Shown: positions 15,520 to 64,000 of the stretch, in pieces
How positions within the stretch are numbered: the first letter of the stretch is position 1
Layout: each line of letters starts with the position of its first letter
From: Massalongia carnosa
Lineage: Eukaryota
NCBI GenBank assembly: GCA_965645245.1
Contig: OZ287085.1
Location: 868,001-932,000 of the forward strand
DNA: 64,000 nt
Direction of reading: 5' to 3'
Translations under genes and position numbers: made by a program
The notes under the pieces: model-generated
The model's input: the letters and a program-made list of their open reading frames with translations, nothing else
Database searches by the model: none
Told to the model about the DNA's origin: nothing

Positions 15520-16824
15520 AGATGCAAAAGGATGATCTTAATAGAATAACTCATTTATTCTTTATTAAGGGCTGTTCTCCACGACTATTAAAGACGAATT
15601 ACGAGGTGTTGGTGATAGACGCCACTTATAAAACCAACAGATTTAAGATGCCCCTTATTGATTATCAGTGGTCAAACCGCCCTACATACCAACTTCTATG
15701 TGGCATTTTGCTTCATGACCAAGGAAGCCATGTCTGATTATACCTAGATATTGCAGCAATTGCGAGGTGTATATGATCGGATGATGCTTCCTAACCCGAT
15801 CGTCATAGTCACGGACATGGAAAAGAGTCTGAAAGCTGGAATTGAGGATGTTTTCCCCGTAACCAATCATCTGCTTTGCTTATGGCATATCAATAATAAC
15901 GTCCTGACCAATTGCAAGAAGAGCTTTGATACCAAAGAGGCGTGGGAATCCTTCTTCGCTGACTGGAAAACGGTCGTTTATGCCTCGTCAGAACCGGAGT
16001 TTTTGGAGTCATAGGAGCGATTCAGGATTCAGTATCAGGGTCAGGATAAATTTGTGGAATAGCTGAACGACATCTATATACCCTTCCGACATTATTTTGT
16101 CAAGTGCTATACCAGTATGATTACTCATTTCGAAACCACCACTACCTCTCGAGATGAAGGCGGGCATGCAGAACTTAAGCGACAGCTAGGGTCATCATCG
16201 GGAGATCTTAAGACGGTTGTGGACGGAATCAATCTTCTATTGATCAATAAACTTTACAATCATCTGATTCGTCTTGATGAAGCGAAGGTACGACTACCTA
16301 TGGATATTCGCAAACCTATCTTTCAGGAAATCAGTCCATACGTCACTCCCTACGCTTTGAGAAAGATAATGCCTCAATACAAACGTTTGGTTGGTCAACC
16401 AACAGCTATTCCGGCCTGTACTGGAACGTTCAGCTTTACCATGGGTCTTCCGTGCAGTCATAAGATTCAGGAACCATTGTATGGGGATAGGGGGGAAAAG
16501 TTGCTATTAGAAGATATTCATCCTCATGGGATGTTTGATAGGACAGTAGCCCGATCACTCGATTAAATGAGAAGCACGAGAATAAGTGATTAGATACTTA
16601 TACAAAAACATGCGAAAAATTTTACAATAAATTATCATGATCTTATTTTTCATTCTCGAACTGTCATATTTCGATATGTTATTTCTTTATCAAAAATATC
16701 GTCTTCGAAGAAGTGACATATAAAACATTACTAGTCGACAGATACTCTGTTACTTCATGACAAAATCCACGATTGCTTATTCTTTCTCTCTGTAAAAATA
16801 ATCTCTAGATTTATTTGTTGAATC

Positions 16825-17072: not shown

Positions 17073-17618
17073 GAATCGACTTTGTTCCTTAACTTTTTCG
17101 TTTTCAAGAAGATGACTTGTTTATTAAGTCAGTCAATAACACTTTTTTAGAGTTTTTTAAAGCTGTCTTCGTTAAACTGACATGTTTTATATGTAAAGTT
17201 TCTTGCGCTTTCACAATAAATTTCAATATTTGTTCAGATTTAGATTTACGTTGTGAAATCAGTGTTCGATCACGTTCTTTATCTTTTTCTAATATGCTTC
17301 AAATTTGCTTCTTCATTATTATAAATCTTTTTGTCGCTTTTTCGTTCTTGTATTCTCGAATTTCTTTCTTTCTTTCGATAATGCATCGTCTTTTTCGAAC
17401 GAAAAATTATCAGAATTATAACTCACTGATATTCTTTCTTCTTTGAAAGATATGACGAAGCGAGATAGTAAATAGATTCTACCATTGCGCCACTTGTCCT
17501 CCCGACCAAAAGGCACAATACTAAGTCCGCAGACCAAGCTCTATTCTACTATAACTGGGACTCCTGCTATATTCGTTGTAGGTACTGCCGTCCGCATCAC
17601 GCACGGTCGAACCTACGC

Positions 17619-24440: not shown

Positions 24441-24468
24441 TGTGTACAGGTAAACGGATATCATTATA

Positions 24469-31815: not shown

Positions 31816-34476
31816 CTATCTCGAATCTCCCTCTGCTCTGGCTATCTCAGCGATAGTTTCATCGTATGCCTCAAGGATAGGCCCGTAAAGCTTCTCCGGA
31901 TCCGGTTTGGTGCCAGTAAACAACAACAACCCATGCGTGAAAGGGAAGAGGATACCCCGTATTGTTCGACACAAATCCTTAAGGCAATCGAGTATTGAAG
32001 GAAATTCCTCCAAAATGTCCTCAAATCCATCAACACCCATATCGCCTCGTTTTCTTCGAGCGATATCATCGAAATCGCCCGTGTACCACATCGTCAAAAT
32101 GCTTTTCCTGGGTCTATCCACCAACTTACACTCAAACTCCCTTTCCCACGCACGACGAGCGCAGATCCATAGAAGCACATAAAAGAACGATTCGAGATCA
32201 TGTCGATAAGTATGATCGATTTTGCGTAGCACTTCAATCGCCATGAACTCCATTGTGCCTGTCTGTTGCCGTGCGCCGGTTCGCCCACCATCGACTATTT
32301 TCGCAAGGTCTGCGTCGATCAGCATCCCCGTGAAGCCGTTGGCTTGCTTTGGATTTGTTATTATGATGTTGTTTTCCGAGATGTCTCTGTGCAGAATGGT
32401 TCCTTCCAAATACAAGGATCTGTGCGCCTTGATCGCATCACGAAGTGCCATTAACAGCTCCGAGATCGAGCAGAAGTTCTTGAGTGCTCGTCCTGCCGGC
32501 GAGATGATTAAGCAGCCGAACACGCGATTGTCGAATGATGTGTCGCTTGAGTCACAGAAACTCGAGGCTTGAGCATTATCAAAGGCGTGTGACAATTCGC
32601 ATTCCTGAGATGATGAGTGGGATCTTTGACTGTTGGATCCCAACCGCTTCAAAGACTTTTCTTTGCTTTCCTCCGACTTTGGTTTCCTTGTACCGGCATT
32701 TTCCGGGGCTTGCAATGCTTCCTGCTCCTTGCATGACTTCGACTTGTGACTGATGGATGCGGGCTCCATGAACAACCTTCCTTCGTGATCCACAGACTTT
32801 CCGTCCATTGGCTGTGCAGTCCTCAGGGACTCCGTAGCATTGTGTCCCTCAGGTAGCCTTGATCTTTGACTGTTGGACCTTGACCTTTTTAAAGGTTTTG
32901 CTTCGTTATCTGCAGATTTTCGTTTCTTCGAGGAGGTCCTCGAAGAATTCTGGACGATGCTCAAGCGTCGAAACGGTCCGAAAGACTGAGAAAGTGGCGG
33001 CTGTAATTGAAAGCACGAGAAAGATGCTGGGGTGTTTGGCGAGGTACTGCGGAATCGGTGAGGAGCAGGAAAGGTCAAGCCACTGCGCATTTCCTGAATA
33101 CTAGTTATGCGGTGGTAGCCCAACAATCTTGCAACTCCTTTTACACCCTTCTGATGTGCCAATCTCAGGATATTTGCCTCCGGTGGCCGCTTCGCGGATG
33201 TCCATGAGAACTTTGCTACATCTTCTAGATCTTTGGTAAGATAGCAAGTTGTTCCCCGACAAACAATGGCTCGTTGCACGACCAGCGGAGCATGCTCCAG
33301 CCGAAATCTCTTTTCTTTTGCAGTAGCATCTTCCATAATGGTTATGAATAAATCTCCACCGTTTCGCTCAACGAATGTGTCCATGCCTAGCTCTTCGTCG
33401 TTCATCATGGCGTATCCCGCAACGGCTCGAATGAATTGCTCGGGTTCCTCGTGAATATCGAATTCACCAGAGCTGTAAGGACCAGATCGATCGAACACCC
33501 AAAGTTCCATGGTAGTTCCGTGGAGGAAAAATCCATGAATGAAACGGCGGGTCGGCTGGGCGGTAAACACATCGCGCATGTACCTGCCGAGTTGGAGGAG
33601 CAGAGTTTTGAAGTCATCCTTTGATTGCTTGTGCTCACCAATGACCCGGACGTCTTTCCACATGTGTGTCGTTTCTACCGTGTCGCTTCTCGGCTTGATG
33701 AAGAGGTCGAGCTGACGCAGGGCTTCAGCACCAGTAAGGTCCTTGGTACTTCTGGTTGTGAAGTAGACACCTTGAGTGTCGGATAGAAACTCATCCTGAA
33801 AACGGACTAACCATTCCCATACAGCATTCTGCACCGACGGATTGGGAAAGTCAGTCCACCAGCCGTCGACATGTCGGTGCTTCACGGCATTGTAGATCTC
33901 TTTGCCCCGCTCCGTCCACACCTTGCCCTCGAAATATTTCGAGAAGAATCCGCCAACCCCCCGGTATGTGCATCTCTTGAATTCATGGAAAAGCGGTCCA
34001 TTCAACAACTCTTTGGTCTGCTCATCACCTTGCTGTGAGGCGGAGGAGCGCGTGATGGGTGTGCCATCGAACGTGAGGGGGACGCTTGTGGGAGAAGTTG
34101 ATCGGGAGACAGTAACGATGAGATCAAAAACGGCGTCCCAAATGTCGACTTCCGGTGCATTTCGGACGACAAGTCGTACAAGCGCACGGTAGTGTTCGTA
34201 GATAAAATTACGATTCTGAACACGTCTGAACAGTGTCGAGAGTTCAGAGGCGATATTCTCGTTGCTAATTTTGGAGCAAAGATCAAAAGCCACTTCGTGG
34301 CCCAGTAAGACAGAGAGAAGTCTCGATATTGCCTTTTGAGCTCCTTGCCCTGAGTCATTGACGGCCGCATCATAAGATTGCTCCGCTTCTCGAAGTGGAC
34401 GTTGTAGATGATCTAGAGCGTTGCCCAAAGGATACTTCTCGATAATATCGCGCTCATCTTGCGAGAGCCTGGCCAT
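31816..34476 (-). CDS. Fungal-type protein kinase (FunK1 / Pkinase_fungal family), intronless, about 886 aa
   Basis: Motifs VIGEHK, QPTRRFIHGF, WVFDRSG, IVCRGTTCY, AKFSW, LHRDISENN, LIDADLA, TGTMEFMAIEVL and HTYRHDLESFFYV. First ATG at 34476. Confidence 0.92.
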   Translation of the reverse strand: MARLSQDERDIIEKYPLGNALDHLQRPLREAEQSYDAAVNDSGQGAQKAISRLLSVLLGHEVAFDLCSKISNENIASELSTLFRRVQNRNFIYEHYRALVRLVVRNAPEVDIWDAVFDLIVTVSRSTSPTSVPLTFDGTPITRSSASQQGDEQTKELLNGPLFHEFKRCTYRGVGGFFSKYFEGKVWTERGKEIYNAVKHRHVDGWWTDFPNPSVQNAVWEWLVRFQDEFLSDTQGVYFTTRSTKDLTGAEALRQLDLFIKPRSDTVETTHMWKDVRVIGEHKQSKDDFKTLLLQLGRYMRDVFTAQPTRRFIHGFFLHGTTMELWVFDRSGPYSSGEFDIHEEPEQFIRAVAGYAMMNDEELGMDTFVERNGGDLFITIMEDATAKEKRFRLEHAPLVVQRAIVCRGTTCYLTKDLEDVAKFSWTSAKRPPEANILRLAHQKGVKGVARLLGYHRITSIQEMRSGLTFPAPHRFRSTSPNTPASFSCFQLQPPLSQSFGPFRRLSIVQNSSRTSSKKRKSADNEAKPLKRSRSNSQRSRLPEGHNATESLRTAQPMDGKSVDHEGRLFMEPASISHKSKSCKEQEALQAPENAGTRKPKSEESKEKSLKRLGSNSQRSHSSSQECELSHAFDNAQASSFCDSSDTSFDNRVFGCLIISPAGRALKNFCSISELLMALRDAIKAHRSLYLEGTILHRDISENNIIITNPKQANGFTGMLIDADLAKIVDGGRTGARQQTGTMEFMAIEVLRKIDHTYRHDLESFFYVLLWICARRAWEREFECKLVDRPRKSILTMWYTGDFDDIARRKRGDMGVDGFEDILEEFPSILDCLKDLCRTIRGILFPFTHGLLLFTGTKPDPEKLYGPILEAYDETIAEIARAEGDSR

Positions 34477-34724
34477 GTTGCGAAAACAGGTATTCAACTG
34501 CGTGCATCGGTCATGGCAACTGATCGAAAAGAGGCTATCCCGTCTATTATGTTCCTGAGAGGCTCATCGCATGGTCTTGTATTACTCAAGGTATGATATT
34601 GACGTGACACGCGAGAACAGAGCACTATTTGCCTCAGTATGTACAATCGGGTACCGGAAGTCACCGTCCGATTTCGCTAATTAGCTAATCATCAAAACTT
34701 TCAACTTTTTTCAAATTGATACTA

Positions 34725-46936: not shown

Positions 46937-47505
46937 CAATTGATTTCTATGATTCTTAATCATTCGAATTTCTCGATTCTTTACGATTCTTGATCCTGCG
47001 ATATCAAGCCTTCGAACTATTGATTGAAGAGGGGTAGTGGGAGGAGGGTGGAGCTGCTCTTGATAGATCAATGGCGCTGATACTAGGCCAGGTCTGGGGC
47101 GAAGAATGTGAAAACTAAAGAGTAATACGAAACGGAGGACGGTCATATCATGACAGCTAGGTGTACGACGACTGCATTGACTCTTTGGCTGTCTAGCTGA
47201 CAGAGGGGCTAACTAGAAAACCAATGGCTGGAAGATAGAGAAGGTGAACAGATAACGATGAAATAAATTTATATTGCTCTTTTATGTATCGACAGATGAG
47301 CGACCGAGAATATAAGCTCAGTAATTAGGGGTATCATATGAATCGAAAGTTCTCGGCGCGTGCAGAGGCACTAGAAACAGCCCTATATCCAATCATCTCA
47401 GGGTAGTCTACCCCGCCCCACAATAGCATTAACAGTTAATTTAAAGGAATATAAAATCGATATTGTTAAGATAGGAAATGACTCATATTTTGTGATCTGT
47501 ATAAC

Positions 47506-47655
47506 TACGTTGCGCAACGGGTTGGGTTTTCGCCACAAAATTGCTTTTTCGCCACCGGATTTTTCTCTAAACTCAACCAGGACACCAAAAATCATAGGGT
47601 TCGCCACAAACGGGTTGAGTTTTCAGTAGAGAAACCCGACCCGTTGCGCGGCGTA
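47506..47655. mobile_element. Non-autonomous hAT MITE (150 bp)
   Basis: TIR TACG..GCGCAACGGGT.GG resembles the hAT at 59126. It is an inverted copy of 53510-53661, and the TSD is not preserved. Confidence 0.75.
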
Positions 47656-48168
47656 GGTGAGACACAATTTTATGTCACGTTTATCTTATTCTTATCATTC
47701 TGCTTTATTTAGAATCGCAATATATTAGTTCCTTTTTAAGCGTCGAATTCTCGTATTGAAGAATACAATAACGCTGTTTTCTCGTTTCACGAATTACGTC
47801 TTTTAGTGACAACAGAATAGCTACTTTCTTTAGTTTACAAATGAAAAATTCGATGATTTTACTTTCTGACGTTTCAGATTTCAATTAAACTCGTGTTTAA
47901 ACGCAGAATCGTAATCAATCTAGATTTTATGTTGCTGAAGAGCTTCTTCTCTTTTTATCTCATTCAAGAAATCATCTTTATCTTTTACGTCAGTCAGTTG
48001 ATCCAATCTCTCAAAATTTACAATTGTTAGCACTTTTGTAAGGTCGTCTGCCGTCATTTTTTTGTTGATATTTATCGTAGTTGAATTGTTATTCGTTAAA
48101 TTTCTTGCCGCAATCTACGTGAATAAATATCGAAGTGTCGTAATTTGATTTGAAGTTTTGTGAATTAT

Positions 48169-48820
48169 TGTCAGGGCGTAGAAGGAATAAGGACTAAGCT
48201 AACTAAGCGGGGCTTAGTTCTACGGCTAGGCTTAGTCATATGGAAAGCAGGTAGTCTGCGTTATGCGGCTGATATCTACTGCCGAGAGTATAGTACGAGG
48301 GATCGAGATATACGAGGATGCTCGTACGATTAGTGAGCGGATGGTACGATACAGTCAGCACAGTGTCCACGATACAGTCAGCACAGTGTCCACGATACAG
48401 TCAGCACAGTGTCCACGATACAGTCAGCACAGTGTCCACGATACAGTCAGCACAGTATCCACGATACAGTCAGCACAGTGTCCACGATACAGTCAGCACA
48501 GTGTCCACGATACAGTCAGCACAGTGTCCACGATACAGTCAGCACAGTGTCCACGATACAGTCAGCAGAGTTTTAAGCCGGCTTATCCGGTAGGAGTAAT
48601 GGGCGGTCAAGATAGTTACAGTATCTGGGGCCCAGAGGTCAAGGGCTTCGGTCCGGGTATATAAGTAGGCTGCTCGAGGGAGATGCAATCTTCAACGATT
48701 AGTCTTCCGCTTTACCTACATACTTCTTTTAGTATATCAGTATAGCAAATCATTAGTCTCTTCACATTGTCATATATCCCTAGGCCTGGTGTCTGCTAAT
48801 CGCCAGGTCTGACTCTTACA
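48169..48820 (+). repeat. Solo LTR of the G1 family with an expanded 23-bp array (9 units plus 1 diverged)
   Basis: Near identity to 1371-1908 and TSD ATTAT (48164-48168 and 48821-48825). Confidence 0.95.
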
Positions 48821-49569
48821 ATTATTCAATCAAGATTTATATCGTTTGCGCATTGTCGCATTCAATTGTCAAAGTTTCGAGAAAATATAACGTGAGTTTC
48901 TTTATCAGTCGAGAGAGGTATATTGTTTCTATATATTACTATCTACATGCAGAGGTCCTATCTATGTAGTTCAAAGTGCTTTATTATAAAGTTTGCTACA
49001 TGATAGCTAGACAAGACTTTGACGGTTTAACCAGGATTTGGAAATGGCTATCTACTGGAAAGCTATGCACTAGAAAATATCAAAGATGCGGAAAGGAAAC
49101 AAGTAAAAGGTGCCCTCTCTAGCATTCTATACAGATAATCGCTTGGCCCGATCCAGCTGCTTATATCTTATCCATAAGTGAAAAGTTTGGTCAAACAATC
49201 TTTCTGCCCTTTTTCCCTTTTATCTATTTTGTTTTTGCTTTAAAAGGTCGTTTCGATAAGTCCCTTTCAGTCTATTCAGACCTCCGTTAATTTCCCCTAT
49301 AGTTGTTAAAACGGTAGAGTAACGGAGGCAGTTAGAGCGTGGGTAGATGCCGTACTTTTTATTGTTTGGCCTTGGGTAGATATGGTTAAACTTTGACTAA
49401 TACGAACTCGAAGAGAAAAGCATTGCTTGCTTGCAGAGATTTCCTAAATGCCTCCTGAATAATATCCTAAGTCTTATGCTGTTAGACCGCAGCAGTACGG
49501 AAGAGGCAACAAACGAGCTGGTCCGTGCGACCGAGCTAAACCTTAATTGTAGATGGAAGTTCAATAAAA

Positions 49570-50033
49570 CTTCTGATGTTCAGTTCACACAATAATATTT
49601 TGGTTGCTTGAGAAATTACAAGAAGCTCGACTTCAATAGACGATATAATAATAGTATTTTATTTGTTAAATTGTCATAATACTATATCTTCAAAAAACTT
49701 CATGATATATTTCTAAGAGATTATTCGATTAAGTTTATTATTGACAAATGATATATCACTTTCGCAGACAAATAAAGAAAGATTTCGATCGTTTTTTGTA
49801 TATCGAATACAACAATTTTGAATTCGATAGAAATAATGCAAAACACGGTCGAAAGTATGATGATATTTTTTATCGGATTGATTATTAAAGCATGAAAACC
49901 TTGAAACTGCAAACGTCACATTTAATCGAATAGAAATAATCGCAAATAGAATTGATTTTACATTCTGTTGATAAATAATTCGAGAGATATTTATTATCTT
50001 ATCTTTTTCTGAAGTAGATATCAATTCTGTAAT
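49570..50033 (-). pseudogene. Heavily mutated Copia RT/RNaseH relic
   Basis: YQQNVKSILFAIISIRLNVTFAVSRFS..FVCESDISFVNN matches the Copia pattern YQ..VGS.LFA...TRPD.AFAVSRLS...ASDASFAD with G, P and A codons eroded. Confidence 0.75.
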
Positions 50034-50270
50034 TGTCACGACTCTACCGGCATGACCTCGGTACCGCCTAGGGTAATCGTAGATAGAACACGCAGGCACT
50101 TTCGATTTCGTTCCCGTAGCTACTAGATAATTCTATGACGACTATACTATATAGATACTAGCGCAGTAGAGAATATATAGGAGCAGGTTCTGGTTTTTTT
50201 CCTTCTTTTTCTTTATTGTATTCGTTTCTAGCGTCCCTATGATTTGTCTTTAGGGAGATATAATATTACA
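50034..50270. repeat. Solo LTR, inverted relative of 16825-17072
   Basis: Shared blocks such as GAAACGAATACAATAAAG and GGGAACGAAATCGAAA appear in reverse complement. The right end is approximate. Confidence 0.75.
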
Positions 50271-50346
50271 ATAAAGATCGCCTTTATCTATTATCCTACG
50301 TGAGAGATATAAAAGAACTCACCGAATCGAGGACTGAAGAAAGAAC

Positions 50347-50917
50347 GACTCTTTTACTAGGCAAGTCGTATAAAACAGAACCAGAACCAGAAGGCCGCCA
50401 CCCCTACAGCGTGGTACCCATACCCAGAACCCGAACCTAGAAGAACCATCCACGGTGGCGGATGTAAAAGAAACCCATATCGGAACAACAAAGAATGACC
50501 CTTTCACAAGGCAAGTCGTAAGAACAAGACCCAGACCCAGTACCCAGAAACCAGAAAAACTATCCTCGGTGGCGGATGTAAAAGAAACCCACATTGGAAC
50601 GACAACGAGCGACCCTTTCACTAAGCTAGTTACCTAGAACCAGATCCAGAAGGCCGCCACCCCTATAGCGTAGCATCCAGACCCAGAATCCGAACCCAGA
50701 AGAACCATCCTCGGTGACGGATGAAAAAAGAAACCCACATCGGAACGACAACGAGCGACTATTTCACTAGGCTAGTCACCTAGAACGAGAAGTAGAAGTC
50801 CGCCACCCCTATAGTATGGCATCCAGACCCAGAACCCGAACCCCCAAGAACTATCATCGGTGACGGATATAAAAGAGCCCCATATCGGAACGACAACGGG
50901 CGACCCTTGCACTAGGC
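50347..50917. repeat. Tandem array of about 146-bp units (about 4 copies, one internally deleted)
   Basis: GACCCTTTCACTAGGC-like anchors recur at about 50347, 50497, 50611, 50757 and 50902, each unit carrying CGGTGGCGGATGTAAAAGAAACCCA.ATCGGAAC. Confidence 0.8.
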
Positions 50918-51218
50918 CCCTTATATTGTCGCTCTCGTTGACATGGTTGTTGTCTTTATTGATATTATTTTTATTAACTTCGTTGTGATTAGAGTAAGAG
51001 ACAAAAACAGTTTAAAATCTACTACTTACTTTATTAACAGAAACGTCACGCGTGAAAGATCTAGAGTGATTACATGTACGCCTGATACGCTACAAATTCT
51101 TACAGATTGAGCATCTCATTTTCTGCTTTGATAAATCAAATCGTTTTCTTCTCTCACGTTTAATGTTTGGCTAATCAGCCTTGATTACAAATTTTGATAA
51201 TTTTATATCGGCCGTTAC

Positions 51219-52682
51219 TATCACGGAATAGCTTCGCACCCTCCCGCTTGTCCTGATCGGGTTAGTATTTAACAGGGCCTATTGCTGTGAAATGTAATAC
51301 GGATGGCGCTAGAGGGATACGTGATCGCCTATGGCGGTTGCGGGATTAACTAGCGTGGACCATGCCGTAGTACGAAGTCGCATAAGCCGTCGAGGCTGAC
51401 ACACTGCCATCTTGCCCCGAAACTTCGGAGTTATTGTTATCACGTTCTTGACTACTTACAGATCAAACACCTGTCGAGGCCGTGGTGGTAGATTGCCATG
51501 GAGTGTAAGGCGGACTCCTGTGGAGACGCCGAGGAACTCTATGTGGAATCTACTGGCCTACTCGGAGCTACTAGATCTCTTGATGGTTCAAGAGAGGTAG
51601 CAGGAGGCACGGCTCGCTGGACGCAGCTTGAGCTGGGCTCCCCGGTGTAAACTTCAGCTTTAACCTTTATTACTACGTTGGTAGTGATGTCGGCTGAATG
51701 AACCTACATGACCTCGTTGTCTAGACCTTGTGTCTAGAGGCAGGTCCGCAGTGTAGCGAGGTATTCAGTCGGAGGTAACCTTCCATCACTAGGTAGTGGT
51801 GACGGCGAAATGAAGCTACATAGCCTGAGGCATGGAGTGAGGGATCTAGCCGGGAGTAGAATTGTTCTACCTTGCAAGGGAAGATCTAGAAGGCTGCTCG
51901 AGGCTGACTAGATGATCCAGCGAACGCCGAGTTCGTGGATGGATCCTGAGGGATGGTTGGATGTAATGCGATAAAGTCGGATGTGGATTGCAAGGCTGTA
52001 AGGCTCCCAAGGCTCCCAAGGCTTGCAAGGCTCCTAAGGTTCCAAGGCTCCCAAGGCTATAGGCTTGGGGTGAGTAGGATAAATATCAGAACGAATCTTG
52101 TAGTATTCGTTAGCAATTAGTCTTTATTCTATGAACAACCTACGTTTGGGTCTCGGACGAGATCTCTTGGTCTAAGCAATTCCACTACCTTTAGCTTTGG
52201 ATCACATATACTCTCGGAGACAAGCACGTAGTAGCTATCTTCCTCCTCTCACGCTGAGCATTTCCCCTTTCGAGATCAGTGTCGCTCGTGATAAGCTTAC
52301 TGGTCTCGTAGCCCATTACATGAAACCTCACCCATCGTGCTCAGGTGTTCTTCTGCCGCCCTCAGCGCACTATCAATCTCCTACAATCCGTATTCAATCT
52401 CAACGTCTCTACTATCCATGCTTATTACTAAGAGTGCTTCAGCACAGATAAAGGCGGGATAGGTCAAATTAATCATGTTAAGGAAATTAGTATAGGAACA
52501 GAGATGGGGCAAGTCGAGAATAGGAGAGTTGAAAGCTATGGCTATAAAGTCTATGTGGTTTCCCAGGTGTTTAGAGCTCTTCATCGGACGTCTTGTGTAT
52601 TATTCTCAACTTCTAGTTTTAGCATATCTAGATATCCGTTCTGCAAGATAGAGTTTTGTATCTCTCCAGCACTCCCCTGACA
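51219..52682 (+). repeat. Solo LTR of about 430 bp (TGTCACGGAATCGC family) split by a nested 1-kb LTR
   Basis: GTTAC/GTTAT flanks and homology to 52867-53296 and 55605-56547. Confidence 0.8.
51293..52320. repeat. Solo LTR (1028 bp); an inverted relative lies at about 63190-64000
   Basis: TG..CA ends, TSD TGAAA (51288-51292 and 52321-52325), and 9-bp AAGGCTCCC repeats at about 51991-52060. Confidence 0.85.
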
Positions 52683-52866
52683 GTTATGAGAATATTGAGA
52701 TCAATAATTTTTAAAATGATCCATATATTGTCTTGTATCTAGCGATTGTAAAGATAAGGTTAACAAAATCTTCTGATTCTCTTTTTTGTTTTATAAACAA
52801 CGCAACGACATAATCACGTGACATTTCATAATTCTGAAAATTATGACAAGTTTCCGTCTCGGATTT

Positions 52867-53296
52867 TGTCACGGAATCGCTTCGCACCCTCCCGCTTGTT
52901 CTGATCGGGTTAGTATTTAAAAGGGCCAATTACTAAGAAACCTCACCTATCGTGCTCAGGTGTTCTTCTGCCGCCCTCAGCGCACTATCAATCTTCGACA
53001 GTCCGTACCCAATCTAACGTCTCTACTATGTAGGCTTATGACTGAGGATGCTTCAGCACAGATAAAGGCGGGATAGGTCAAAGCAATCATGTTAAGGAAA
53101 TTAGTATAGGAACAGAGACGGGGCAAGTCGAGAACAGGAGAGTTGAAAGCTATGGCTATAAATTCTATGTGGTTTCACAGGTGTTTAGAGCACTTCATCG
53201 GACGTCTTGTGTATTATTCACAACTTCTAGTTTCAGCATATGTATATATCCGATCTGCAAGATAGAGTCTTGTATCTCTCCAACCCCCCCAAGAGA
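52867..53296 (+). repeat. Solo LTR of the TGTCACGGAATCGC family
   Basis: Colinear with 51219-52682 once its insert is removed, with GATTT/GTTTT flanks. Confidence 0.78.
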
Positions 53297-53509
53297 GTTT
53301 TCAGGTTCACGATATGATAGAACGAGAATTTTGAAAAGTATACTCGATCGATCGTTTTGTTCATTTTGATGTTTTTTCAGACATAATCGGAGATTTTATC
53401 GGTCTTGTATTTAAGCTTGTGTCGTTTATAAACTAGTTTATGTATTGATTTCAAATCTGATAAAGACAAGACAATAGGAGCCTGTGACATGTTTTTAGTC
53501 AAATATTAT

Positions 53510-53661
53510 TACGACGCGCAACGGGTTGGGTTCCTATACTGAAGACCCAACCTGTTTGTGGCGAACCCTATGATTTTCGATATCCTATTTGAGTTTTGAA
53601 AGAAAACCCCGGTGGCGAAAAAGCAACTTTGTGGCGAAAACCCAACCCGTTGCGCGGCGTA
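53510..53661. mobile_element. Non-autonomous hAT MITE (152 bp)
   Basis: TIR TACG.CGCGCAACGGGTTGGGTT and a perfect 8-bp TSD AATATTAT. Confidence 0.9.
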
Positions 53662-54654
53662 AATATTATTTTGCGATTCTTAAACATGAGATGATAATTG
53701 ATCATATCGAGAACGAGGAAAATCATATACAATTTACTACTCTAAATATATATCTTTGATATAGTTTGCGTAATTAGATTTCGTTGCTCTAATTCTGTTA
53801 TGTATAATGTTGAATTTTACCTGTATTTTAAATTCAACCTCATTTCATAAAAGATTTCGATATGTTTTCTTTCGTTTTTTATCGACCTTTTTTTCGAGAT
53901 GTTTGTAATAATAAATATATAAAACGACAGAAAAATATTTAAATAATGCATATTTAATATCTTTATTTCAATCATTAATAAGCACTTCTTGTCGTCTCGA
54001 GCGAAATTGAACGTATAATATCATTGCTCGTAAAAAAAAGATCCAGTTATTTCTGTTCTCGATTAAGATCAATATCGACGTTATTTTCAATATCTTATTA
54101 TTATCGTCTTGAGTTACAAAACACAAGATTACAAGCGCGTTCGATATCTTGCAAGCGATATCACTATATTGAACTATCGAGCGACAATAAAGAAAAACAC
54201 GTTTAATCGTCTTTGACAGTACTAAAAATCGTTTGAAAGAATTGTTTTTATCTAACTTCAGGTTTGTTTATAAAAATCTTGTATTATTTATTCTTCGTAT
54301 GTTGACAAGAATATAGATATATATTGAAAGCTTTGTTTAGTATTTTCAAATCGTTTTATCATGAGAGACTCTTTTGTGCGTTATATCGTCATATAATTTG
54401 GGTTGTTTTCTCGACTGAAAGTCTGAAGATTATTAAATACCTTAATTTAACTCGATAATCAGATTACACAAGCGTATAATTTGTTTTATTAATGATTGAT
54501 TACTAAACAGGACTGTTATCTGAATGATCGACAAGATTAGCTATTTTACAATTATAAGAAATCCATTAAATGACTATTCTTAATTTAATGTCAGTATTAT
54601 TTTGTCTTAATTCTTATATATTTAAGAATTGTATTTCTCAATTTTATTAAATAA

Positions 54655-55105
54655 GTTTATCCCTGCCGTAACCTTACCAGCCTGCCTATGTAGCTAGCAT
54701 AGATAAACTCCAGAACACGTAATTATATTCTGTAGACTTTTTGGAAATAGAGAACAGATTTTTTGCGCCGCTGGCACGAACAACTATCAACAGCTGACCG
54801 AAAAATTAAAAACTCTAAAGATATTAACTACTTGGCTAATAAAAACAGGTCTACTGATCTAATTCTTACTGGCATCTTTACTATTGTACAATTAACAGTA
54901 GTTTCACCTTTCTTTTCCTTCTTATCTCATAATACGTCACAGTTCTCACATGATTTTGGCTCTGCGTCTCCTGTCCGACGTCGACCCGGTACCATATCGG
55001 ACAGATATCAAGGGATATAGTTTTTACACCTGAAAAAAGATTTCCATATAACATAACTTAGATAGCTTTACCCGCAAGTTCGGCCTACGGCCGGTGAAAT
55101 ATTGG
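54655..55105. repeat. Unclassified repeat of about 450 bp; an inverted, insertion-split copy lies at about 55578-56975
   Basis: Shared blocks in opposite orientation, e.g. AAAGCTATCTAAGTTAT, ATATCCCTT..GTCCGATATG..CGGGTCGAC and CTGGAGTTTATCT. Confidence 0.65.
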
Positions 55106-55604
55106 AGAATGAATAAATTATTATTATTATTGAATAAGTTGATTCGTATTCGAAGGTTACAATGATCGTACTTAAATAAACTTTTTTTTTGATCTTTTCA
55201 ATTCGTGTTAAATATCTAATTCCTACCAGCATAATAAATACCTATCAGTTCAATAAATATAGTACATACGGCTGCACTAGATTAATAGATCATCTACGGA
55301 AACCTTAGATGCCGCATTAGGCTTAGTTCCAAGATAAGATAATATTACCTCGCTTAGAAGGGGTAACCAGTAAAAGGAAAAGATTGCTTGCCTAGCAACT
55401 TTTAATCCTTAACATCACGGTCATAAAAACCTTTTTTATTTTATAGTCATATGACTATAGTTATATACCTATTTTAACATTTCACTAGAACTCGCTTTTG
55501 CTTGCAAGTCAATTAAAAATCATTCGTCTCGTCTTATATTAATCGTTTCATAATTATGTTGATGATGATATATTTATACTCCGATATGTTACCGACCTAG
55601 GCCG

Positions 55605-56547
55605 TATCATGGGAGGGCTGGAGAGATACAAGACTCTATCTTGCAGAACGGATATCTAGATATGCTAAAACTAGAAGTAGAGAATAATACACAAGACGTC
55701 CGATGAAGAGCTCTAAATACCTGTAAGAGTCAGACCTGGCGATTATCAGACACCAGGCCTAGGGATATGTGACAATGTGAAGACACTAATGATTTGCTAT
55801 ACTAATATACTAAAAGAAGTATGTAGGTAAAGCGGAAGACTAATCGTTGAAGATTGCATCTCCCTCGAGCAGCCTCCTTATATACCCGGACCGAAGCCCT
55901 TGACCTCTGGGCCCTTGATACTGTAACTATCTTGACCGCCCATTACTCCTACCGGATAAGCCGGCTAAACACTCTGCTGACTGCATCGTGGACACTGTGC
56001 TGACTGTATCGTAGACACTGTGCTGACTGTATCGTGGACACTGTGCTGACTGTATCGTACGATCCGCTCACTAATCGTACGAGTATCCTCGTATATCTCG
56101 ATCGCTCGTATTATACTCTCGGCAGTAGATACCAGCCGCGTAACGCAGACCAACTGCTTTCCATATGACTAAGCCTAGCCGTAGAACTAAGCCCCGCTTA
56201 GTTAGCTTAGCCCTTATTCCTTCTATGCCCTGACAATACCTGGGAAACCACATAGACTTTATAGCCATGGCTTTCAACTCTCCTATTCTCGACTTGCCCC
56301 GTCTCTGTTCCTGTAATAATTTCCTTAACATAATTGCTTTGACCTATCCCGCCTTTATCTGTGCTGAAGCACTTTCAGTCATAAGCCTAGATAGTGGAGA
56401 CGTTGAGATTGGATACGGATTGTAGGAGATTGATAGTGCGCTGAGGGCGGCAGAAGAACGCCTGAGCACGATAGATGACAGCAATAGGCCCCGTTAAATA
56501 CTAACCCGATCAGGACAAGCGGGAGGGTGCGAAGCGATTCCGTGACA
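55605..56547 (-). repeat. Solo LTR of the TGTCACGGAATCGC family carrying a nested G1 LTR
   Basis: TSD GGCCG (55600-55604 and 56548-56552). Confidence 0.85.
55722..56235 (-). repeat. Solo LTR of the G1 family (3 units plus 1 diverged of the 23-bp array)
   Basis: Reverse complement of 1371-1908 lacking one unit, with TSD ATACC. Confidence 0.95.
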
Positions 56548-57923
56548 GGCCGACCCATACGGGCAAAGCTATCTAAGTTATACTACATGGAAAACCTAGC
56601 ACAGTTGTAAAAACCATATCCCTTAATAACCGTCCGATATGACTACGGGTCGACATCGGGAGGAAGACGCAGTGCAAAGGACGTGGGGAACTGTAATGCC
56701 TTGTGAAAAGAGTAGAAAAAAAGAAAGGTTCAACTATTATTGCTTATACAATAATATTGATGCTAGTGAGAACTGATTCAATAAGCCTGTTTTTATTACC
56801 CAAGCAGTTAGTATCTTCAGAGGCATTGATGATTCGGTAAGCTGCTAATAGTCGCTCGTGCTGGCGGCGCGAAACATCTGTTCTCTATTGTCAATAAGTC
56901 TGCAGAACATGATTACATGTTCTGGAGTTTATCTGTGCCTGCCATATAAGCAGTCCGGTGAGGTAATAGAGGGTACCCGTCGCTTGTAGAGGAAGTCAGC
57001 TAACCCGATCTTGCCAGTGCGGATTTGTGATGTTAGAGCGCTTTCTGCCTTTTTTAGCTGCGTGTGTATTTTCAGCCGTTTTTTACTCAGTTTGACTGAT
57101 TGTATTATAGAGGGTTCAATGACGCGATTTTGATATGCGCACTACGAGTCGTTCTAGACTTTTATTTGTCGTGCATTAATTGTTTGCATCTGCTTGTGTC
57201 GGGCCGTTACCGCAACGATAGCTTCGCGGTGCCACACCGTTATCATTTTATTCTTGATCAATAACAAGTAATTTTTTGATAAGTCGATTATAATAAGATT
57301 AAACGAGATATTGTGGTGGGGCGACATGTGTCATCTATGGTCAGGTGACATGGCAGGCCTGTGTGGGGATAAAACGGGTTTTTTGCTGGCGTTTTCTTCA
57401 TCATCTCCGGACATCATCTTCTATCATCTACGCTGTCATAATAATTGTCGTGTCACGTAGTCATCGACACACGTTTATTTCGTGGATCAACTAGTCGTTC
57501 AGTCGTTCAGTCGTCGAGTTCTTTTCATCCCTATGCAGTCGTATGTCGATTAAGACGTTTGTGTGTGTGTGTATGTTTACTGCTCAGTTCGCCATCTATC
57601 ATCACGTACCACTACCTTCTATTAGCACGCACGACTACCCTTCTTCAACATAAGTATGTGGAACTGATAGACGAAGATATGCATAAATCTGTCCCGAATT
57701 AACGCTAAAACTCGAATATTACGTAGTTCAGATATCTCATTCAAGTATTTATAAAGTTTTAATGATTTTTAATACTTAAAGCAGAAAATTATAAAACTCT
57801 AATTGATAGATTCAGTCATTTCATTTATGATTTACTTTTGGATATCGCACGATTATCGAACTATGGATATCTAATCACTCGTTTTTATCGTAGTAATTAT
57901 ATCTTCTTTCTTGAAGTAACAAG

Positions 57924-58297
57924 TACATCGTGTAACGGGTTAGGTTAAACTCGTCGGGTTTGGGTTGGGTTCGGGTTTTATATGCGGATTTCCGGATTAA
58001 ACTATTAAACCCCGTCAGTTTTTTTCTGCAAATTTGATATGAAAATTCAACGAAAATATTACTTTTAAAGTAATAAAAAACTTGCTTACTTATTATTATT
58101 TCTTGATAACTACTTTTCAGGATTTTCAGGATTTTTAAATGTGTTTAAAACGTCTAAGAAACATGTTTAAAATTGATAAAAAAATTAAACGGGTCGACCA
58201 GGTCAAACGAGTTTACCCGGGAACGGTTCTCTAACCCAGTAGCGGGTCGGGTTTAACTAGTCAAAACACAACCTAACCTGATCCGTTGTGTAGCGTA
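57924..58297. mobile_element. Non-autonomous hAT element (374 bp)
   Basis: Degenerate TAC..GTAACGGGTT / ..CCGTTGTGTAGCGTA ends, GGGTT subterminal repeats and an 8-bp TSD GTAACAAG. Confidence 0.8.
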
Positions 58298-58829
58298 GTA
58301 ACAAGATTTTATCGAGTAATCGATATTCAATGAAATTTTCCTTGTGCGTGTTATTTTACTATTCGATCGCAATATTTCAAATAATCTTCAAATAACTTCA
58401 TTCAATTAATTAAATTTCTTGAAGATTAGCTTGACATCTTTAAAAGCAAAATTACGTGTATATTACGGTAGTTGAATTTGAAATAACCCCCAGGCAAGAT
58501 AAGAGGATTATTTGAGGATAATCTTAGTAATTTATCGTGTTATATTACTTCTATTAACAGATCAAAAAATTTAAGAATATGACATTATCGTTATTCAAGA
58601 ATCCTGATACCAATTCCTTATTTTTATTATATTAAGCTCTCATCAAAGTAGATTTTACTTATTAAATCGTTCGAATAGAGACGCAAGAATATATTTCTTT
58701 ATCAATAACTCAATCGATCTCGATAATTCAGAAGTAAAATTCTCGTCGACGGATATTATCATTCTAATAATCCGCACAAAAATTGAATAAAAATCAGAAG
58801 TGATTCACGTTTATAACGTGTACAATTCT

Positions 58830-59125
58830 TTTATTGAAATAGGTATATAACTATGACTATATTGCTATATAATAACCGACAATTTGTATGACCCTGATGT
58901 ATAAGATAAAAAGTTGCTATTAAGCAGTCTTCTCCTTATAAGTGGTTACCCTCTACTAAGCGAAGTGATAATAATTTATCCGAGCCTAGGTTACTTAAGA
59001 CACCGCTAAAGGTCTTAAGTAACCGATTCGGTTAGACTAGAACTGATCTATCTTATCTGTTGGGCTGGTAGAAGTTGAAAATTCAGCATCTTTTCTCGCT
59101 TTCTATTTATTTATAGATAGTTTAT
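58830..59125. repeat. Unclassified AT-rich repeat; an inverted relative lies at about 55190-55490
   Basis: AATAGGTATATAACTAT, AAAAGTTGCTA and GGTTACCC..CTAAGCGA are shared in opposite orientation. Confidence 0.55.
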
Positions 59126-59695
59126 TACGCCGCGGAATGGGTTGGGTTGGGTTGGGTTCGGGTTGGGTTATTGTTGGGTTGGGTTCGCGTTGGGTTTTCA
59201 TTGGGTTATCCAAATCACATGCTTAGTAATTGTAATCAATAACCTTGACTTATCAACGTGGCGATCGGCGTTAGTATCTTATGTATTCTCAACTATACCA
59301 TCTACTTACCACCAGGCATACTCTTCCTGGTGGTTGGTTTTCTTATCGCACCAGTTCTGGCACCTGGTCCGGGTTTTCTGTCGAGTGTTCGGTTTGGAAT
59401 TCTGCGCGTACGCTTGCGCGGAGTTTTCGGTGCCATATCTAAAGGCAAACAGGCAAGCAGACAGGTTATCAGTAGTCGCGCGTGGCAACTAGGTTAAGTT
59501 GGGTATGGTTAGGTTCAGTATGACTAGGTTGGGTTGGCTAGTTTAGGTAGAATATCTATGCATGCGTTGGATTTGACTGAGTGTTTAGAACGTAAACGTA
59601 GTTATTAATGCTTTATCGCAGCATAATCTAGTCAATGAAGTTACCTTCCTACAGCTACATTCCTACTGCTACATCCTATATATACATTCCTATAT

Positions 59696-62936: not shown

Positions 62937-63189
62937 TTTTCTGTTGGGTAACCCAACGATAACCCAACCCAACCCAAAACCCATTGGGTTGGGTTCTCAT
63001 TTTAATAACCCAACCCAACCCAACCCATTCCGCGGCGTAGTTCCGATGCTTCCCTTTCAGTCCTCTCAGACCTCCGTTGATTGCCCTTATGATTACTAAA
63101 AGGGTTGAGTAACGGAAGCGGTTAGTGCGCCGGCAGATGCCGTACTTTCCTTTGATTAGCCTTGGGTTAATGTGGTTGCATGGTGACAT

Positions 63190-64000
63190 CGAAAGGGGAA
63201 ATGCTCAGCGTGAGTGGTGGAAGATAGCTACTACGTGCTGGTCTCCGAGAGAATACGTGATCCAAAGAACCAATGGATGTGGAAGTGCTTAGACCAAGTG
63301 ATCTCGTCCGAGACCCAAACGTGGGTTGGTCATAGAATAAAGACTAATTGCTAACGAATACTACAGGATTCGTTCTGGTCGTTATCCTACTTACTCCAAG
63401 CCCATAGCATTTGGAGCCTTGTAACCTTAGGAGCCTTGCAACCCACTTCTGACCTTATCGCCTTGCATCTAACTATCCCTCAGGATCCATCCACGAACTC
63501 GACGTTCGCTGGATCATCTAGTCACCTCGAGCAGCCTTCTAGACGTTCCCTTGCAAGGTAGAATATTTCTACCTCCGGCTAGATCCCTCGCCTCATTGCT
63601 AGCCTGCCTCTAAACATAAAGTCTAGACGCCGAGGCTATGTAACTTCATTTCGCCGTCACCACTACCAACGTAGCGATGGAAGGTTACCTCCGACTGAAT
63701 CTCTATCTACACTGCGGAGCTGCCTCTAGACACTAGGTCTAGACCACAAGTTCATGTAGGTTCATTCAGCCGACATCACTACCAGCGTAGCAATAAAGAT
63801 GGAAGCTGTAGTTTACAGCGTGCGTCCAGCTAGCCGTGCCTCCTGCTACAACTCTTGATCTATCAAGAGATCGAGTAGCTCCGAGTAGGCCTGTAGATTC
63901 CATATAGAGTTCACGGCTAGTGTCCACAGGAGTTCGACTTACTCCCTTGCAATCTACCACCGCGGCCTCGGCAGGTGTTTGATCTTTAAGCAGTCTAGGA
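63190..64000. repeat. Inverted, window-truncated relative of the 1-kb LTR at 51293-52320
   Basis: Reverse-complement blocks such as CATAGAATAAAGACTAATTGCTAACGAATACTAC and CAGGATCCATCCACGAACTCG. The left end is approximate. Confidence 0.8.

Follow-up and report, generated by a model that had tools for sequence, protein, structure and literature searches.

The analyzed window is a transposon-rich, 64,000-nucleotide stretch of the genome of the lichen-forming ascomycete Massalongia carnosa. The feature under study is an AT-rich island that abuts the high-copy repeat R on the left and a LINE 3' fragment on the right, and is poor in CC and GG and rich in CpG (Table 1).

Table 1. Features of the window discussed in the text
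Feature	Coordinates	Strand	Evidence or remarks
Focal AT-rich island, ~26% GC, CC/GG-poor, CpG-rich	53667..54670	.	Composition; younger repeats at both sharp edges
Dead Mutator-like (MULE) transposase gene, 3 frame-shifted pieces, 7 in-frame stops	53668..54559	-	tblastn
Open stretch of 99 codons within the relic, spans the MULE domain	53971..54267	-	phmmer
Strictest CC/GG-poor core	53888..54399	.	~2 CC/GG vs 19 expected, 512 bp
High-copy repeat R, normal composition, truncates the MULE relic	53510..53666	-	Other copy at 47501-47655, + strand
LINE 3' fragment, CC/GG not depleted, right border of the island	54671..55086	+	Copy at 56964-56547
Second island	47656..48165	.	47733-48002 = 272 bp without CC or GG
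Longest CC/GG-free run, 395 bp, 28% GC, 15 CpG	17089..17481	.	Composition
CC/GG-free run, 216 bp	16553..16766	.	Composition
Two CC/GG-free runs, 245 and 148 bp	49604..50046	.	Composition
AT-rich region, canonical-type RIP indices, CC/GG not depleted	57700..58830	.	Shuffles and indices
LINE relic within 57700-58830	58503-58829	+	tblastn with P0130 (E 5e-7) and P0144 (E 3e-7)

The focal island is a former Mutator-like DNA transposon. A tblastn search with the protein P0156 recovered three consecutive matches (54559-54416, 54428-54291, and 54288-53749; E = 1.9e-64), with 145 identical residues among the 274 aligned amino acids, and the match to P0162 extends the relic to its left end. The 99-codon frame produced 13 phmmer matches at E<=1e-3 against 1.84 billion representatives (best E = 1.8e-27), and all 13 of these relatives contain the Pfam domain PF10551 (MULE). 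Searched directly, the read-through frame matched PF10551 with E = 0.015 and 16.1 bits, under the curated cut-off of 27.6. The island is also present in contigs assembled from runs of two studies, one of which (X3 record 14) corresponds to 53700-54734 with no differences and the other (X4 record 23) to 53712-54827 with eight.

Dinucleotide counts were compared with the expectation from base composition, and CC+GG was evaluated with 10,000 mononucleotide shuffles per interval, counting the shuffles as low as observed. Within 53700-54650 (26.1% GC), there are 6 CC (16.4 expected) and 5 GG (15.9 expected), that is, 11 CC+GG against a shuffle mean of 32.1 (0/10,000 as low), along with 35 CG (16.2 expected), 67 TC (50.5 expected), and 56 GA (41.3 expected); the observed/expected ratios of TA, CA, and TG are 0.89, 0.91, and 0.91, respectively. 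The original prediction started from a by-eye count of about 17 CpG, one CC, and one GG in 54001-54300, which proved exact on recount (6.4, 7.1, and 5.9 expected, respectively; CC+GG as low in 0/10,000 shuffles). In the strictest core, CC/GG drops to 0.11 of expectation, and CpG rises to 2.58 times expectation. Over the whole window, these ratios are 1.00 for CC, 1.00 for GG, and 1.01 for CG.

Eight intervals had been proposed to share this texture. In six of these, 0-3 of the 10,000 shuffles were as low in CC+GG as observed, so the loss of CC/GG goes beyond base composition: apart from the two intervals above, these are 17080-17450 and 47700-48160 (0/10,000 each), 16570-16820 (1/10,000), and 49570-50030 (3/10,000). 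The remaining two did not hold up: 52690-52860, with 3 CC+GG against a mean of 6.5 (844/10,000), is too short for significance, and 57700-58830, with 53 against a mean of 49.4 (7504/10,000), shows no depletion. CpG excess was reached by none of the 10,000 shuffles in 53700-54650, 54001-54300, 47700-48160, and 57700-58830, was weaker in 49570-50030 (39/10,000), 17080-17450 (130/10,000), and 16570-16820 (790/10,000), and was not significant in 52690-52860 (2198/10,000). Besides the CC/GG-free runs given in Table 1, of which the 245-bp run occupies 49604-49846, there is a 218-bp run at 54045-54260 in the focal island. Among the CpG of pooled AT-rich segments, 38/115 lie in the TCGA context, and both TCG and TCGA are enriched.

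RIPCAL, as described in PMC2621366, defines a CpC>TpC class of mutation and the corresponding index (CpC+GpG)/(TpC+GpA). This index is 0.02-0.12 in the depleted intervals of the window vs 0.69 for the whole window. The standard RIP indices do not flag these intervals, in which TA/AT is 0.65-0.86; for the focal island, TA/AT is 0.86 and (CA+TG)/(AC+GT) is 0.99. Thus, the pattern that defines canonical RIP, namely, preferred CpA>TpA change with increased TpA/ApT and decreased (CpA+TpG)/(ApC+GpT), was not found in the CC/GG-poor tracts. The AT-rich region 57700-58830 showed canonical-type values of 0.94 and 0.79, respectively.

The polarity of the damage was assessed by comparing the codons of the island with those of a less mutated MULE relative and sorting the replacements by whether they can be reached by C>T/G>A changes. 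This was the case for 75 of the 129 replacements, against 8 in the reverse direction; in a permutation null, the number of forward replacements averaged 23.5, with a maximum of 37. Proline was converted to TCN at 4/5 sites and glycine to GAN at 8/12 sites (AGN at 1/12), and tryptophan codons were also altered as predicted by CpC>TpC/GpG>GpA. The CpG of CGN arginine codons was kept at 11/13 sites, whereas histidine became tyrosine (TAT) at 6/8 sites and cysteine became tyrosine at 5. These codon changes imply that CpC>TpC is saturated, CpA was partly hit, and CpG was spared; the combination accounts for the near absence of CC/GG and the excess of TC/GA and TCGA, and CpG stands at twice the expectation because total C and G dropped while CpG stayed. 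Accordingly, the earlier statement that CA/TG remain common is correct as far as the ratio of about 0.9 goes but misses the partial mutation of CpA. The other 54/129 replacements are not simple transitions, which indicates that the island is old and that the protein used for comparison is not its direct ancestor. Decay of methylated CpG does not fit, as had been argued originally, given the CpG observed/expected ratios of 1.5-2.6 in the window islands together with the retained arginine codons. A UV, oxidative, or APOBEC3A/B-type signature was rejected as well, given that TC/GA is enriched instead of depleted.

We consider it probable that the CC/GG-poor, CpG-rich islands are transposon fossils that were inactivated by a RIP-like hypermutation process in which CpC>TpC is the strongest change. 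The description of the islands as old repeats holds for the focal island, the only one tied to a transposon; of the five window islands, four lack a recognizable ancestor and gave no coding relic. The second island is flanked on the left by repeat R, which ends at 47655, and on the right by a solo LTR (48166-48826), and its six read-through frames (47660-48168) had no Pfam match. No credible Pfam match was detected in the six frames of 16450-17561, where DUF6018 appeared below threshold only. The tract at 49604-50046 adjoins a repeat that recurs at 16719-17072, and six-frame Pfam searches of 49500-50041 found no match. Blastn with word size 7 identified no partners of the island cores within the window, and BLAST of the purine/pyrimidine-recoded window, run without a shuffle control, gave scores clustered at 30-46, none of which stood out. 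Relics of the window's own transposon ORFs were not detected by tblastn in 42-60 kb, no tandem repeats were found in the islands, and comparison of the islands with the metagenome loci described below yielded no tblastx match and one weak blastn match.

The scarcity of identifiable ancestors could be taken to mean that the islands are native AT-rich spacer or centromere-type DNA that avoids CC/GG and into which transposons insert. In agreement with such an origin, transposon ends often adjoin unrelated AT-rich DNA: in run X3, 35 contigs continue past 47655 into unrelated AT-rich sequence, with a consensus agreement of 0.4. However, the focal island encodes a transposase with strongly directional damage, and the stretches 55001-55600 and 57800-58500 are AT-rich yet not depleted of CC/GG, so that we regard native composition as very improbable.

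The repeats of normal composition that surround the islands carry a different mutational record. The two copies of repeat R are 86% identical. The two copies of the LINE 3' fragment differ by 67 C/T changes, distributed as CpA 30, CpT 21, CpG 8, and CpC 8, and 18 polarized transitions in high-copy repeats, a selected sample from the 40 listed of 638 "other letter" rows, comprise CpA 11, CpT 4, CpC 3, and CpG 0. The lack of CpC bias in both sets (8/67 and 3/18) suggests that the process that formed the islands is not acting on these repeats now. A metagenome scan for an exact 22-base pattern of the high-copy repeat produced 0 matches.

A purer form of the signature was observed in metagenome contigs of related fungi (80 loci, none of them from the M. 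carnosa genome). CC/GG-poor tracts are present in 9 of these 80 loci (6 independent), with CC+GG at 0.00-0.11 of expectation, and reach 9.4 kb, spanning several elements; in one of them (L057:2-3987), about 3 CC/GG remain of 251 expected (~1%). Across all such tracts, TA is 0.36-0.85 and CA+TG 0.80-1.66 of expectation. In 300-bp windows of the loci, the CC+GG ratio is bimodal, with 105 windows at 0-0.1 and 90 at 0.1-0.5. When CpC>TpC change of the transposons in the window was simulated until saturation, it gave 36-37% GC and observed/expected ratios of 0.49-0.62 for TA and 1.67-1.87 for TC+GA, reproducing the composition of the related tracts; when CpA at 0.2-0.4 and CpT at 0.1-0.2 were added, the result matched the window islands.

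The LINE in locus L024 could be aligned to an intact relative (P0142) over 821 amino acids without gaps. Of the 246 replacements, 241 require C>T/G>A changes only, and none is in the reverse direction; a control, the unmutated LINE in L077, showed 48 forward vs 37 reverse. Of the 15 tryptophan codons, 13 became TGA and none became TAG; the 35 proline sites are now TCN (24), CTC (4), or TTN (7); and of the 64 glutamine and histidine CAN codons, 63 are retained. G>A changes at the first codon position follow G in 33 cases, C in 19, A in 9, and T in 0, and conserved G at this position is preceded by A 65 times, C 28, T 28, and G 0. A FunK1 gene about 600 bp from this tract is intact. In L008, a Ty3/Gypsy integrase relic has 1 CC/GG vs 48 expected and carries the same Trp>TGA and Pro>TCN changes. 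Taken together, the codon comparisons of the island and of these LINE and Ty3/Gypsy relics support the original proposal of a mutator that causes C>T changes preferentially in CC contexts. Replacements of the C>T type on the coding strand (Pro>Ser, Thr>Ile, and Ala>Val) are about as frequent as those of the G>A type (Gly>Asp/Glu, Glu>Lys, Asp>Asn, and Trp>stop), indicating that both strands were mutated. Pfam searches of the L057 and L024 read-through frames recovered Gti1_Pac2 alone, in 1 of 12 frames. The 23 clusters of related proteins (P0121-P0143) have 0-3 Pro and 0-3 Gly in 8 of the 9 counted; P0121-P0138 combine 0-3 Pro and 0-3 Gly with 16-23 Trp. From the latter set, it seems that TGG>TGA change leads gene callers to translate TGA as Trp in dead elements and thus to report long false ORFs.

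CC is the classic target of APOBEC3G, and the affected elements include LINE and Ty3/Gypsy relics, as would be the case had single-stranded cDNA been edited by an APOBEC3G-like enzyme during retrotransposition. APOBEC3G, however, edits the 3' C of CC on a single strand, whereas here the 5' C is changed, as seen in the Trp and Pro codons of L024, both strands are about equally affected, the tracts cross several elements, and a DNA transposon (MULE) is included. Such editing is therefore extremely improbable, the common CC target notwithstanding.

Slow decay is another conceivable route to the same composition: a non-CpG methyltransferase would mark CC in silenced transposons, and spontaneous deamination would do the rest, with no dedicated mutator. 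The age of the focal island, with its frameshifts, stops, and non-transition replacements, fits this scenario, and the chemistry of RIP itself is unsettled, in that C may be methylated before it is deaminated or may be deaminated directly. The L024 alignment argues against gradual decay, given the near absence of replacements other than transitions over its gap-free 821 codons, and so do the copies in L019 and L024, which align without gaps and are separated by 133 transitions and 3 transversions, and the all-or-none state of CC/GG. Near-exclusive transitions combined with an all-or-none state look like a burst, and we consider slow decay improbable.

The tracts differ in their treatment of CpG, which is kept in the window island, about half lost in L024 (~40-55%, compared with 1/64 of CpA), and almost completely lost in L018. 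CpG is thus reduced in some related tracts, but loss of CC/GG is the constant feature. This variation may mean that more than one process is involved. Alternatively, a single mutator with graded preferences could explain all the changes, including those at CpA, with no separate canonical RIP. The ranking in the related tracts (CpC, then CpG, then CpA/CpT) is compatible with a single mutator, as is the finding that about a quarter of the CpA/CpT sites differ between two copies in some tracts. In the window island, however, the order is CpC, CpA, and then CpG (2/13 lost), unlike L024; 57700-58830 combines canonical indices with normal CC/GG; and three metagenome loci, in which CC+GG stands at 1.5-1.6 times expectation, carry the canonical type of RIP alone. 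On this evidence, a single mutator appears rather unlikely.

RIP, a textbook fungal genome defense whose CpA preference is treated as near-universal, is known from Neurospora crassa and most Pezizomycotina, depends on the RID and/or DIM-2 pathways, and acts before meiosis; in Neurospora, CpC is the least favored context. The process described here resembles RIP in the almost exclusive C:G>T:A transitions on both strands, in the saturation of kilobase-scale transposon tracts with fairly sharp borders and apparently spared neighboring genes, and in that the 3' base sets the preference. It differs in that this preference is inverted, with CpC saturated and CpA nearly untouched in the related tracts. 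Fungal repeat-directed C>T processes with contexts other than CpA have precedents: Horns et al. (2012) reportedly described TCG-targeted hypermutation in Pucciniomycotina (Microbotryum), and some Eurotiales have CpG-biased RIP. These TCG/CpG-type processes remove CpG, whereas the window islands are enriched in TCG/TCGA and largely keep their CGN arginines. Preferential effects of RIP on CpA have been reported (10.1101/344036; PMC2621366), and in the RIPCAL description, CpC>TpC is one of four possible classes, with CpA dominant in the fungi analyzed there (PMC2621366).

Under hypermutation led by CpC>TpC, which we favor, the MULE copy would have undergone a burst of C>T changes on both strands, with the first C of CC as the top target (GpG>GpA on the opposite strand). 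The CC/GG steps of the focal island were converted to TC/GA, which produced replacements of Pro by Ser, Gly by Asp/Glu, and Trp by stop. About half of its CpA sites were hit as well, and CpG was left almost untouched. Younger repeats of normal composition later inserted into the relic and fragmented it. The mutator could be an enzyme that acts on double-stranded DNA and is guided by homology or heterochromatin, perhaps of the RID/DIM-2 kind or an unrecognized deaminase. Like Neurospora RIP, it would recognize the nucleotide 3' of its target, with the ranking of contexts reversed; a canonical CpA-type process has probably also acted, separately, in the M. carnosa genome. No gene of the RID/DIM-2 type is present within the 64-kb window. 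One paralog of the focal island was seen (~81% identity; records 15 and 22), and the island is low-copy today, so that any dependence of the process on repeats is conjectural. Over 47000-56900, the summed depth of contigs from public runs, which differs from copy number and serves as a hint of low-copy islands only, is about 1.3-6 times the depth of exactly matching contigs in island bins and 30-1400 times that depth in the flanking repeats.

In the literature searched, we found no description of a CpC-dominant RIP signature; the string "CpC" in PMC5602860 is a strain name and not a mutation context. A 2025 kingdom-wide screen describes a CpA preference shared by RIP-like defenses (PMC12543289), and the large AT-rich fraction of lichen-fungus genomes has been described as a difficulty for binning (PMC9907504). 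We tentatively propose, at somewhat less than even confidence, that lichen fungi of the Lecanoromycetes possess a second RIP-like defense, enzymatically distinct from the canonical one, which targets the 5' C of CpC and, secondarily and to a varying extent, CpG, saturates kilobases of DNA, and coexists or alternates with CpA-type RIP in the same lineages. It would have been missed because RIP indices and k-mer screens seek TpA gain, and its determinant could be either a divergent methyltransferase of the RID/DIM-2 type or an unrecognized DNA deaminase. Part of the AT-rich fraction of lichen-fungus genomes would then be invisible to RIP indices. Saturating CpC-directed RIP, if true, would mean that the rule on sequence context is open to inversion and would provide a natural contrast for finding the enzyme, or the part of an enzyme, that reads the neighboring base.

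CC, GG, and CG each occur at the expected frequency over the 64-kb window as a whole (44.8% GC), which is crowded with retroelements. Among its repeats is a Ty3/Gypsy chromovirus encoding a gag protein with a zinc knuckle and a pol protein with reverse transcriptase, RNase H, integrase, and chromodomain; given the 99.8% identity of its long terminal repeats (LTRs), this is a very recent insertion, and signs of hypermutation are absent. The closest named relatives of the fungal-type protein kinase (FunK1) encoded in the window all come from lichen-forming Lecanoromycetes (Varicellaria, Xylographa, and Trapelia; 64-69% identity), which identifies the organism as a lichen mycobiont, an ascomycete in which RIP (repeat-induced point mutation, with CpA as the canonical target) is expected. 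A 23-bp tandem array is present within Gypsy LTR copies (48346-48571 and 55969-56058); its unit count is 9.8 in one solo LTR and 3.9 in the other, and the LTRs of the young element show no such expansion. An imperfect 300-bp palindrome (24466-24768, 68% self-complementary) lies next to the second Gypsy element, just beyond its LTR, and a short TGGGT/TTGGGT-type array, G-rich on the plus strand, occupies 59138-59207.

Features of the window and mutated tracts in loci of related fungi
Feature	Location	Strand	Remarks
Ty3/Gypsy chromovirus, apparently intact	1368-7994		LTRs 1368-1908 and 7454-7994
Further reverse-transcriptase ORF set	8.7-12.6 kb
Second Ty3/Gypsy element	~17.6-24.4 kb
FunK1 gene	31816-34563	minus
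Third Ty3/Gypsy element	~36.7-41.4 kb
99-codon open stretch	53971-54267	minus	coincides with sub-threshold MULE match
LINE relic	58503-58829		inside 57700-58830
Canonical RIP tracts	L030:1051-4400, L031, L054		adjoin FunK1 genes; GC down to 16%
CC/GG-free tract	L057:2-3987		GC 35%; CC+GG ~3 observed, 251 expected
CC/GG-free tract	L024:3737-7513		GC 36%; CC+GG ~2-3 observed, 240 expected

The count by eye behind the original prediction (17 CpG, 1 CC, and 1 GG in 54001-54300) proved exact. Across 53700-54650 (26% GC), we found 11 CC+GG vs 32 expected and 35 CpG vs 16 expected, with TC, GA, and TA at 1.33, 1.36, and 0.89 of expectation, respectively. Against 10,000 mononucleotide shuffles per interval, six of the eight intervals said to share this texture were depleted beyond all but 0-3 shuffles, but two were not: depletion was not significant in 52690-52860, which is too short (844 of 10,000 shuffles were as low), and CC+GG was not depleted in 57700-58830 (53 vs a shuffle mean of 49.4). 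The latter interval combines normal CC/GG with canonical RIP indices (TA/AT of 0.94 and (CA+TG)/(AC+GT) of 0.79); thus, one genome carries both signatures less than 4 kb apart. The texture is not common to all AT-rich DNA: CC/GG is also normal in the stretches 55001-55600 and 57800-58500. In 3.1 kb of pooled AT-rich segments (including 58300-58830, later found to be undepleted), surviving C is almost exclusively preceded by A or T and followed by a base other than C. The trinucleotides CCN and NCC fall to 4-17% of their density elsewhere in the window, and WCG is fully retained. TCGA, the expected product of CCGG when its first C and its last G are mutated, holds 38 of the 115 CpG in this pool.

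The focal island, the CC/GG-poor and CpG-rich stretch within 53667-54670, is, by its similarity to known proteins, a dead Mutator-like transposase. A Pfam search with its stop-read-through frames gave a sub-threshold MULE match (E = 0.015) at an open stretch whose length is exceptional in 27%-GC DNA. With these 99 residues as the query, a full phmmer search retrieved 13 proteins at E<=1e-3 (best 1.8e-27), all with the MULE transposase domain. The less mutated relative P0156, a protein of 284 aa with 8 Pro, 13 Gly, and 9 Trp, matches 54559-53749 in three pieces separated by frameshifts (145 identities over 274 aa; E = 1.9e-64), and the alignment of another database protein, P0162, extends to 53668; thus, the relic fills the island. 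A transposon origin is thereby shown for this island; no coding relic was found at the four other CC/GG-free islands (16553-16766, 17089-17481, 47733-48002, and 49604-50046), which, judging from texture alone, could also derive from transposons. A weak match (15658-15975, plus strand; E = 0.001, 22% identity) to P0164, one of the mutated-type proteins with a MULE domain, precedes the 16.5-17.5 kb islands by ~0.6 kb and may represent a second MULE relic.

Compared with P0156, 75 of 129 replacements in the focal island are reachable by C>T/G>A alone (permutation null: mean 23.5, maximum 37), with 8 in the reverse direction. Proline codons became TCN at 4 of 5 sites and glycine codons GAN at 8 of 12 and AGN at 1 of 12; arginine CGN was retained at 11 of 13 sites, His changed to TAT at 6 of 8, Cys to Tyr at 5, and Gln to stop or Tyr at 3 of 10. 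Thus, in this lineage, CpC is saturated, CpA is hit at about half of the sites, and CpG is spared. Together with tracts in related fungi, these changes support the proposed C>T mutator preferring CC contexts.

The islands are flanked by the ends of younger repeats whose composition is normal. Within the window, sensitive blastn found no partners for them, and a transition-blind purine/pyrimidine search, run without a finished control, returned only noise. When 47000-56900 was compared with contigs of four public runs, runs belonging to three studies contained the islands unchanged; because independent runs reproduce them, an assembly artefact is ruled out. The islands look low-copy, the flanking families having hundreds to >1000x more summed depth, itself a rough hint of copy number; 53694-54400 has one diverged paralog (~81% identity) in the same organism. 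The non-coding repeat 51303-52295 (second copy 63184-63998) has a summed contig depth ~1000x that of exactly matching contigs from the same runs, and this repeat is also abundant in one lichen metagenome run. Among repeats of normal composition, 18 polarised transitions in the entries listed (a selected 40 of 638) comprise 11 at CpA, 4 at CpT, 3 at CpC, and 0 at CpG, and the 67 C/T differences of the most diverged pair fall on CpA (30), CpT (21), CpG (8), and CpC (8). CpC bias is absent from these copies in the window; thus, the CC/GG-stripping process is not acting on today's abundant repeats.

The 80 related loci (1.06 Mb) were retrieved from metagenome contigs by means of a FunK1 kinase alignment. 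Their AT-rich parts form two classes, canonical RIP and almost CC/GG-free. The canonical class includes three loci (two from the same place), with TA at 1.4, CA+TG at 0.2, and CC+GG at 1.5-1.6 of expectation. The CC/GG-free class includes nine loci from six independent places, with TC+GA at 1.4-1.9, TA at 0.36-0.6, CA+TG at 1.2-1.5, and CpG at 0 to 1.8 of expectation; in L024, this state spans 9.4 kb. Over all 300-bp windows of the loci, the CC+GG observed/expected ratio is bimodal (105 windows at 0-0.1, 90 at 0.1-0.5, and the bulk at 0.7-1.1). Inside the L057 tract (~147-290, frame 2), we detected a remnant of a Gti1/Pac2 (WOPR regulator) domain (Pfam E = 1e-6); this would place a gene other than a transposon within the mutated DNA.

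In a Ty3/Gypsy integrase relic (L008:1879-2859; E = 7e-18; CC/GG 1 vs 48 expected), TGA is found at 4/5 and 5/10 of the positions where intact integrases have Trp, and TAG at none, with TCN at 8 of 18 Pro and GAN at 5 of 14 Gly positions. A second relic is a LINE ORF2 (L024:3330-5792), for which a protein search returned 23 related clusters (64-86% identity); eight of the nine whose composition was counted, at lengths of 729-1062 residues, contain 0-3 Pro and 0-3 Gly. The make-up of one relative, P0142, is normal (35 Pro, 39 Gly, and 15 Trp), and over 821 gap-free codons, C>T and G>A alone can produce 241 of the 246 replacements separating L024 from it, with 0 in reverse (permuted-codon null: mean 59.5, maximum 77); an unmutated control LINE in L077 gave 48 forward vs 37 reverse. 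Of 15 Trp codons, 13 turned into TGA and none into TAG; Pro (n = 35) became TCN (24), CTC (4), or TTN (7), and Gly (n = 39) GAN (20), AAN (9), or AGN (9). Retention was high for Gln/His (CAN; 63/64), Cys (10/11), and Met (18/20), and ~23 of ~41 CGN arginines lost CpG. First-codon-position G>A changes follow G (33), C (19), A (9), or T (0), and conserved G at this position follows A (65), C (28), T (28), or G (0). Thus, the order in that fungus is CpC (all) > CpG (about half) >> CpT and CpA (near none), with both strands hit about equally. Mutated L019 and L024 copies of another repeat (1027 bp, gap-free) differ by 133 transitions and 3 transversions, including 14 places with CA in one copy and TG in the other, which means that a CpG was mutated on opposite strands. 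A LINE relic from L018 bears the same signature with nearly all CpG lost. Relatives of the L024 ORF among database clusters (P0121-P0138; 729-940 residues with 16-23 Trp but 0-3 Pro and 0-3 Gly) show Trp at the TGA positions of L024, which suggests that gene callers read dead LINE copies with TGA as Trp, yielding long false ORFs.

Change runs in the C>T/G>A direction, affects both strands, and mainly targets the 5' C of CC. Tracts are saturated in an all-or-none manner and extend past the borders of individual elements; a DNA transposon as well as LINE and LTR elements are affected. Simulated saturating CpC>TpC change in the window's own transposons gave 36-37% GC, as in the related tracts; when CpA was also mutated at 0.2-0.4 and CpT at 0.1-0.2, the result was 28-32% GC, with CpG at 2.1-2.6, TA at 0.7-0.8, and CA+TG at 0.7-0.9, compared with 28%, 2.18, 0.74, and 0.93 in the window islands. 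We infer a RIP-like process working on double-stranded DNA, in which the enzyme would sense the 3' neighbour of the target C and the CpA component could be due to a separate canonical process. Native composition and methyl-CpG decay were rejected. APOBEC3G-like editing of cDNA was rejected too, since the C that changes is not the one it targets, hits fall on both strands, and a DNA transposon is among the affected elements. Slow decay through methylation of CpC is improbable: it could apply to the MULE relic of the window, which is old, but fits poorly with the related tracts, from which other substitutions are nearly absent.

The context order in L024 is the reverse of that of RIP in Neurospora. 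There, CpA is described as the preferred target (10.1101/344036; PMC2621366), whereas in the L024 tracts CpC is saturated and CpA nearly untouched. In the consulted portion of the RIPCAL paper, CpC>TpC is defined merely as one of four formal classes (PMC2621366), and section 9 of a kingdom-wide k-mer screen states that RIP-like defences share the CpA preference (PMC12543289), although its supplementary tables might list other Lecanoromycetes k-mers. For the lichen fungi Cladonia, Xanthoria, and Endocarpon, the available portions of the papers report RIP from GC content or standard indices (PMC12542154; 10.1101/2025.11.25.690456; PMC3897900), with two standard index values only in the Endocarpon text (PMC3897900); the word "dinucleotide" is absent from the Cladonia and Xanthoria texts (PMC12542154; 10.1101/2025.11.25.690456). 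No report of CpC-dominant RIP was found in the literature searched. The CC/GG-poor signature is real, and the evidence supports its interpretation as a fossil of RIP-like hypermutation with a CpC preference.
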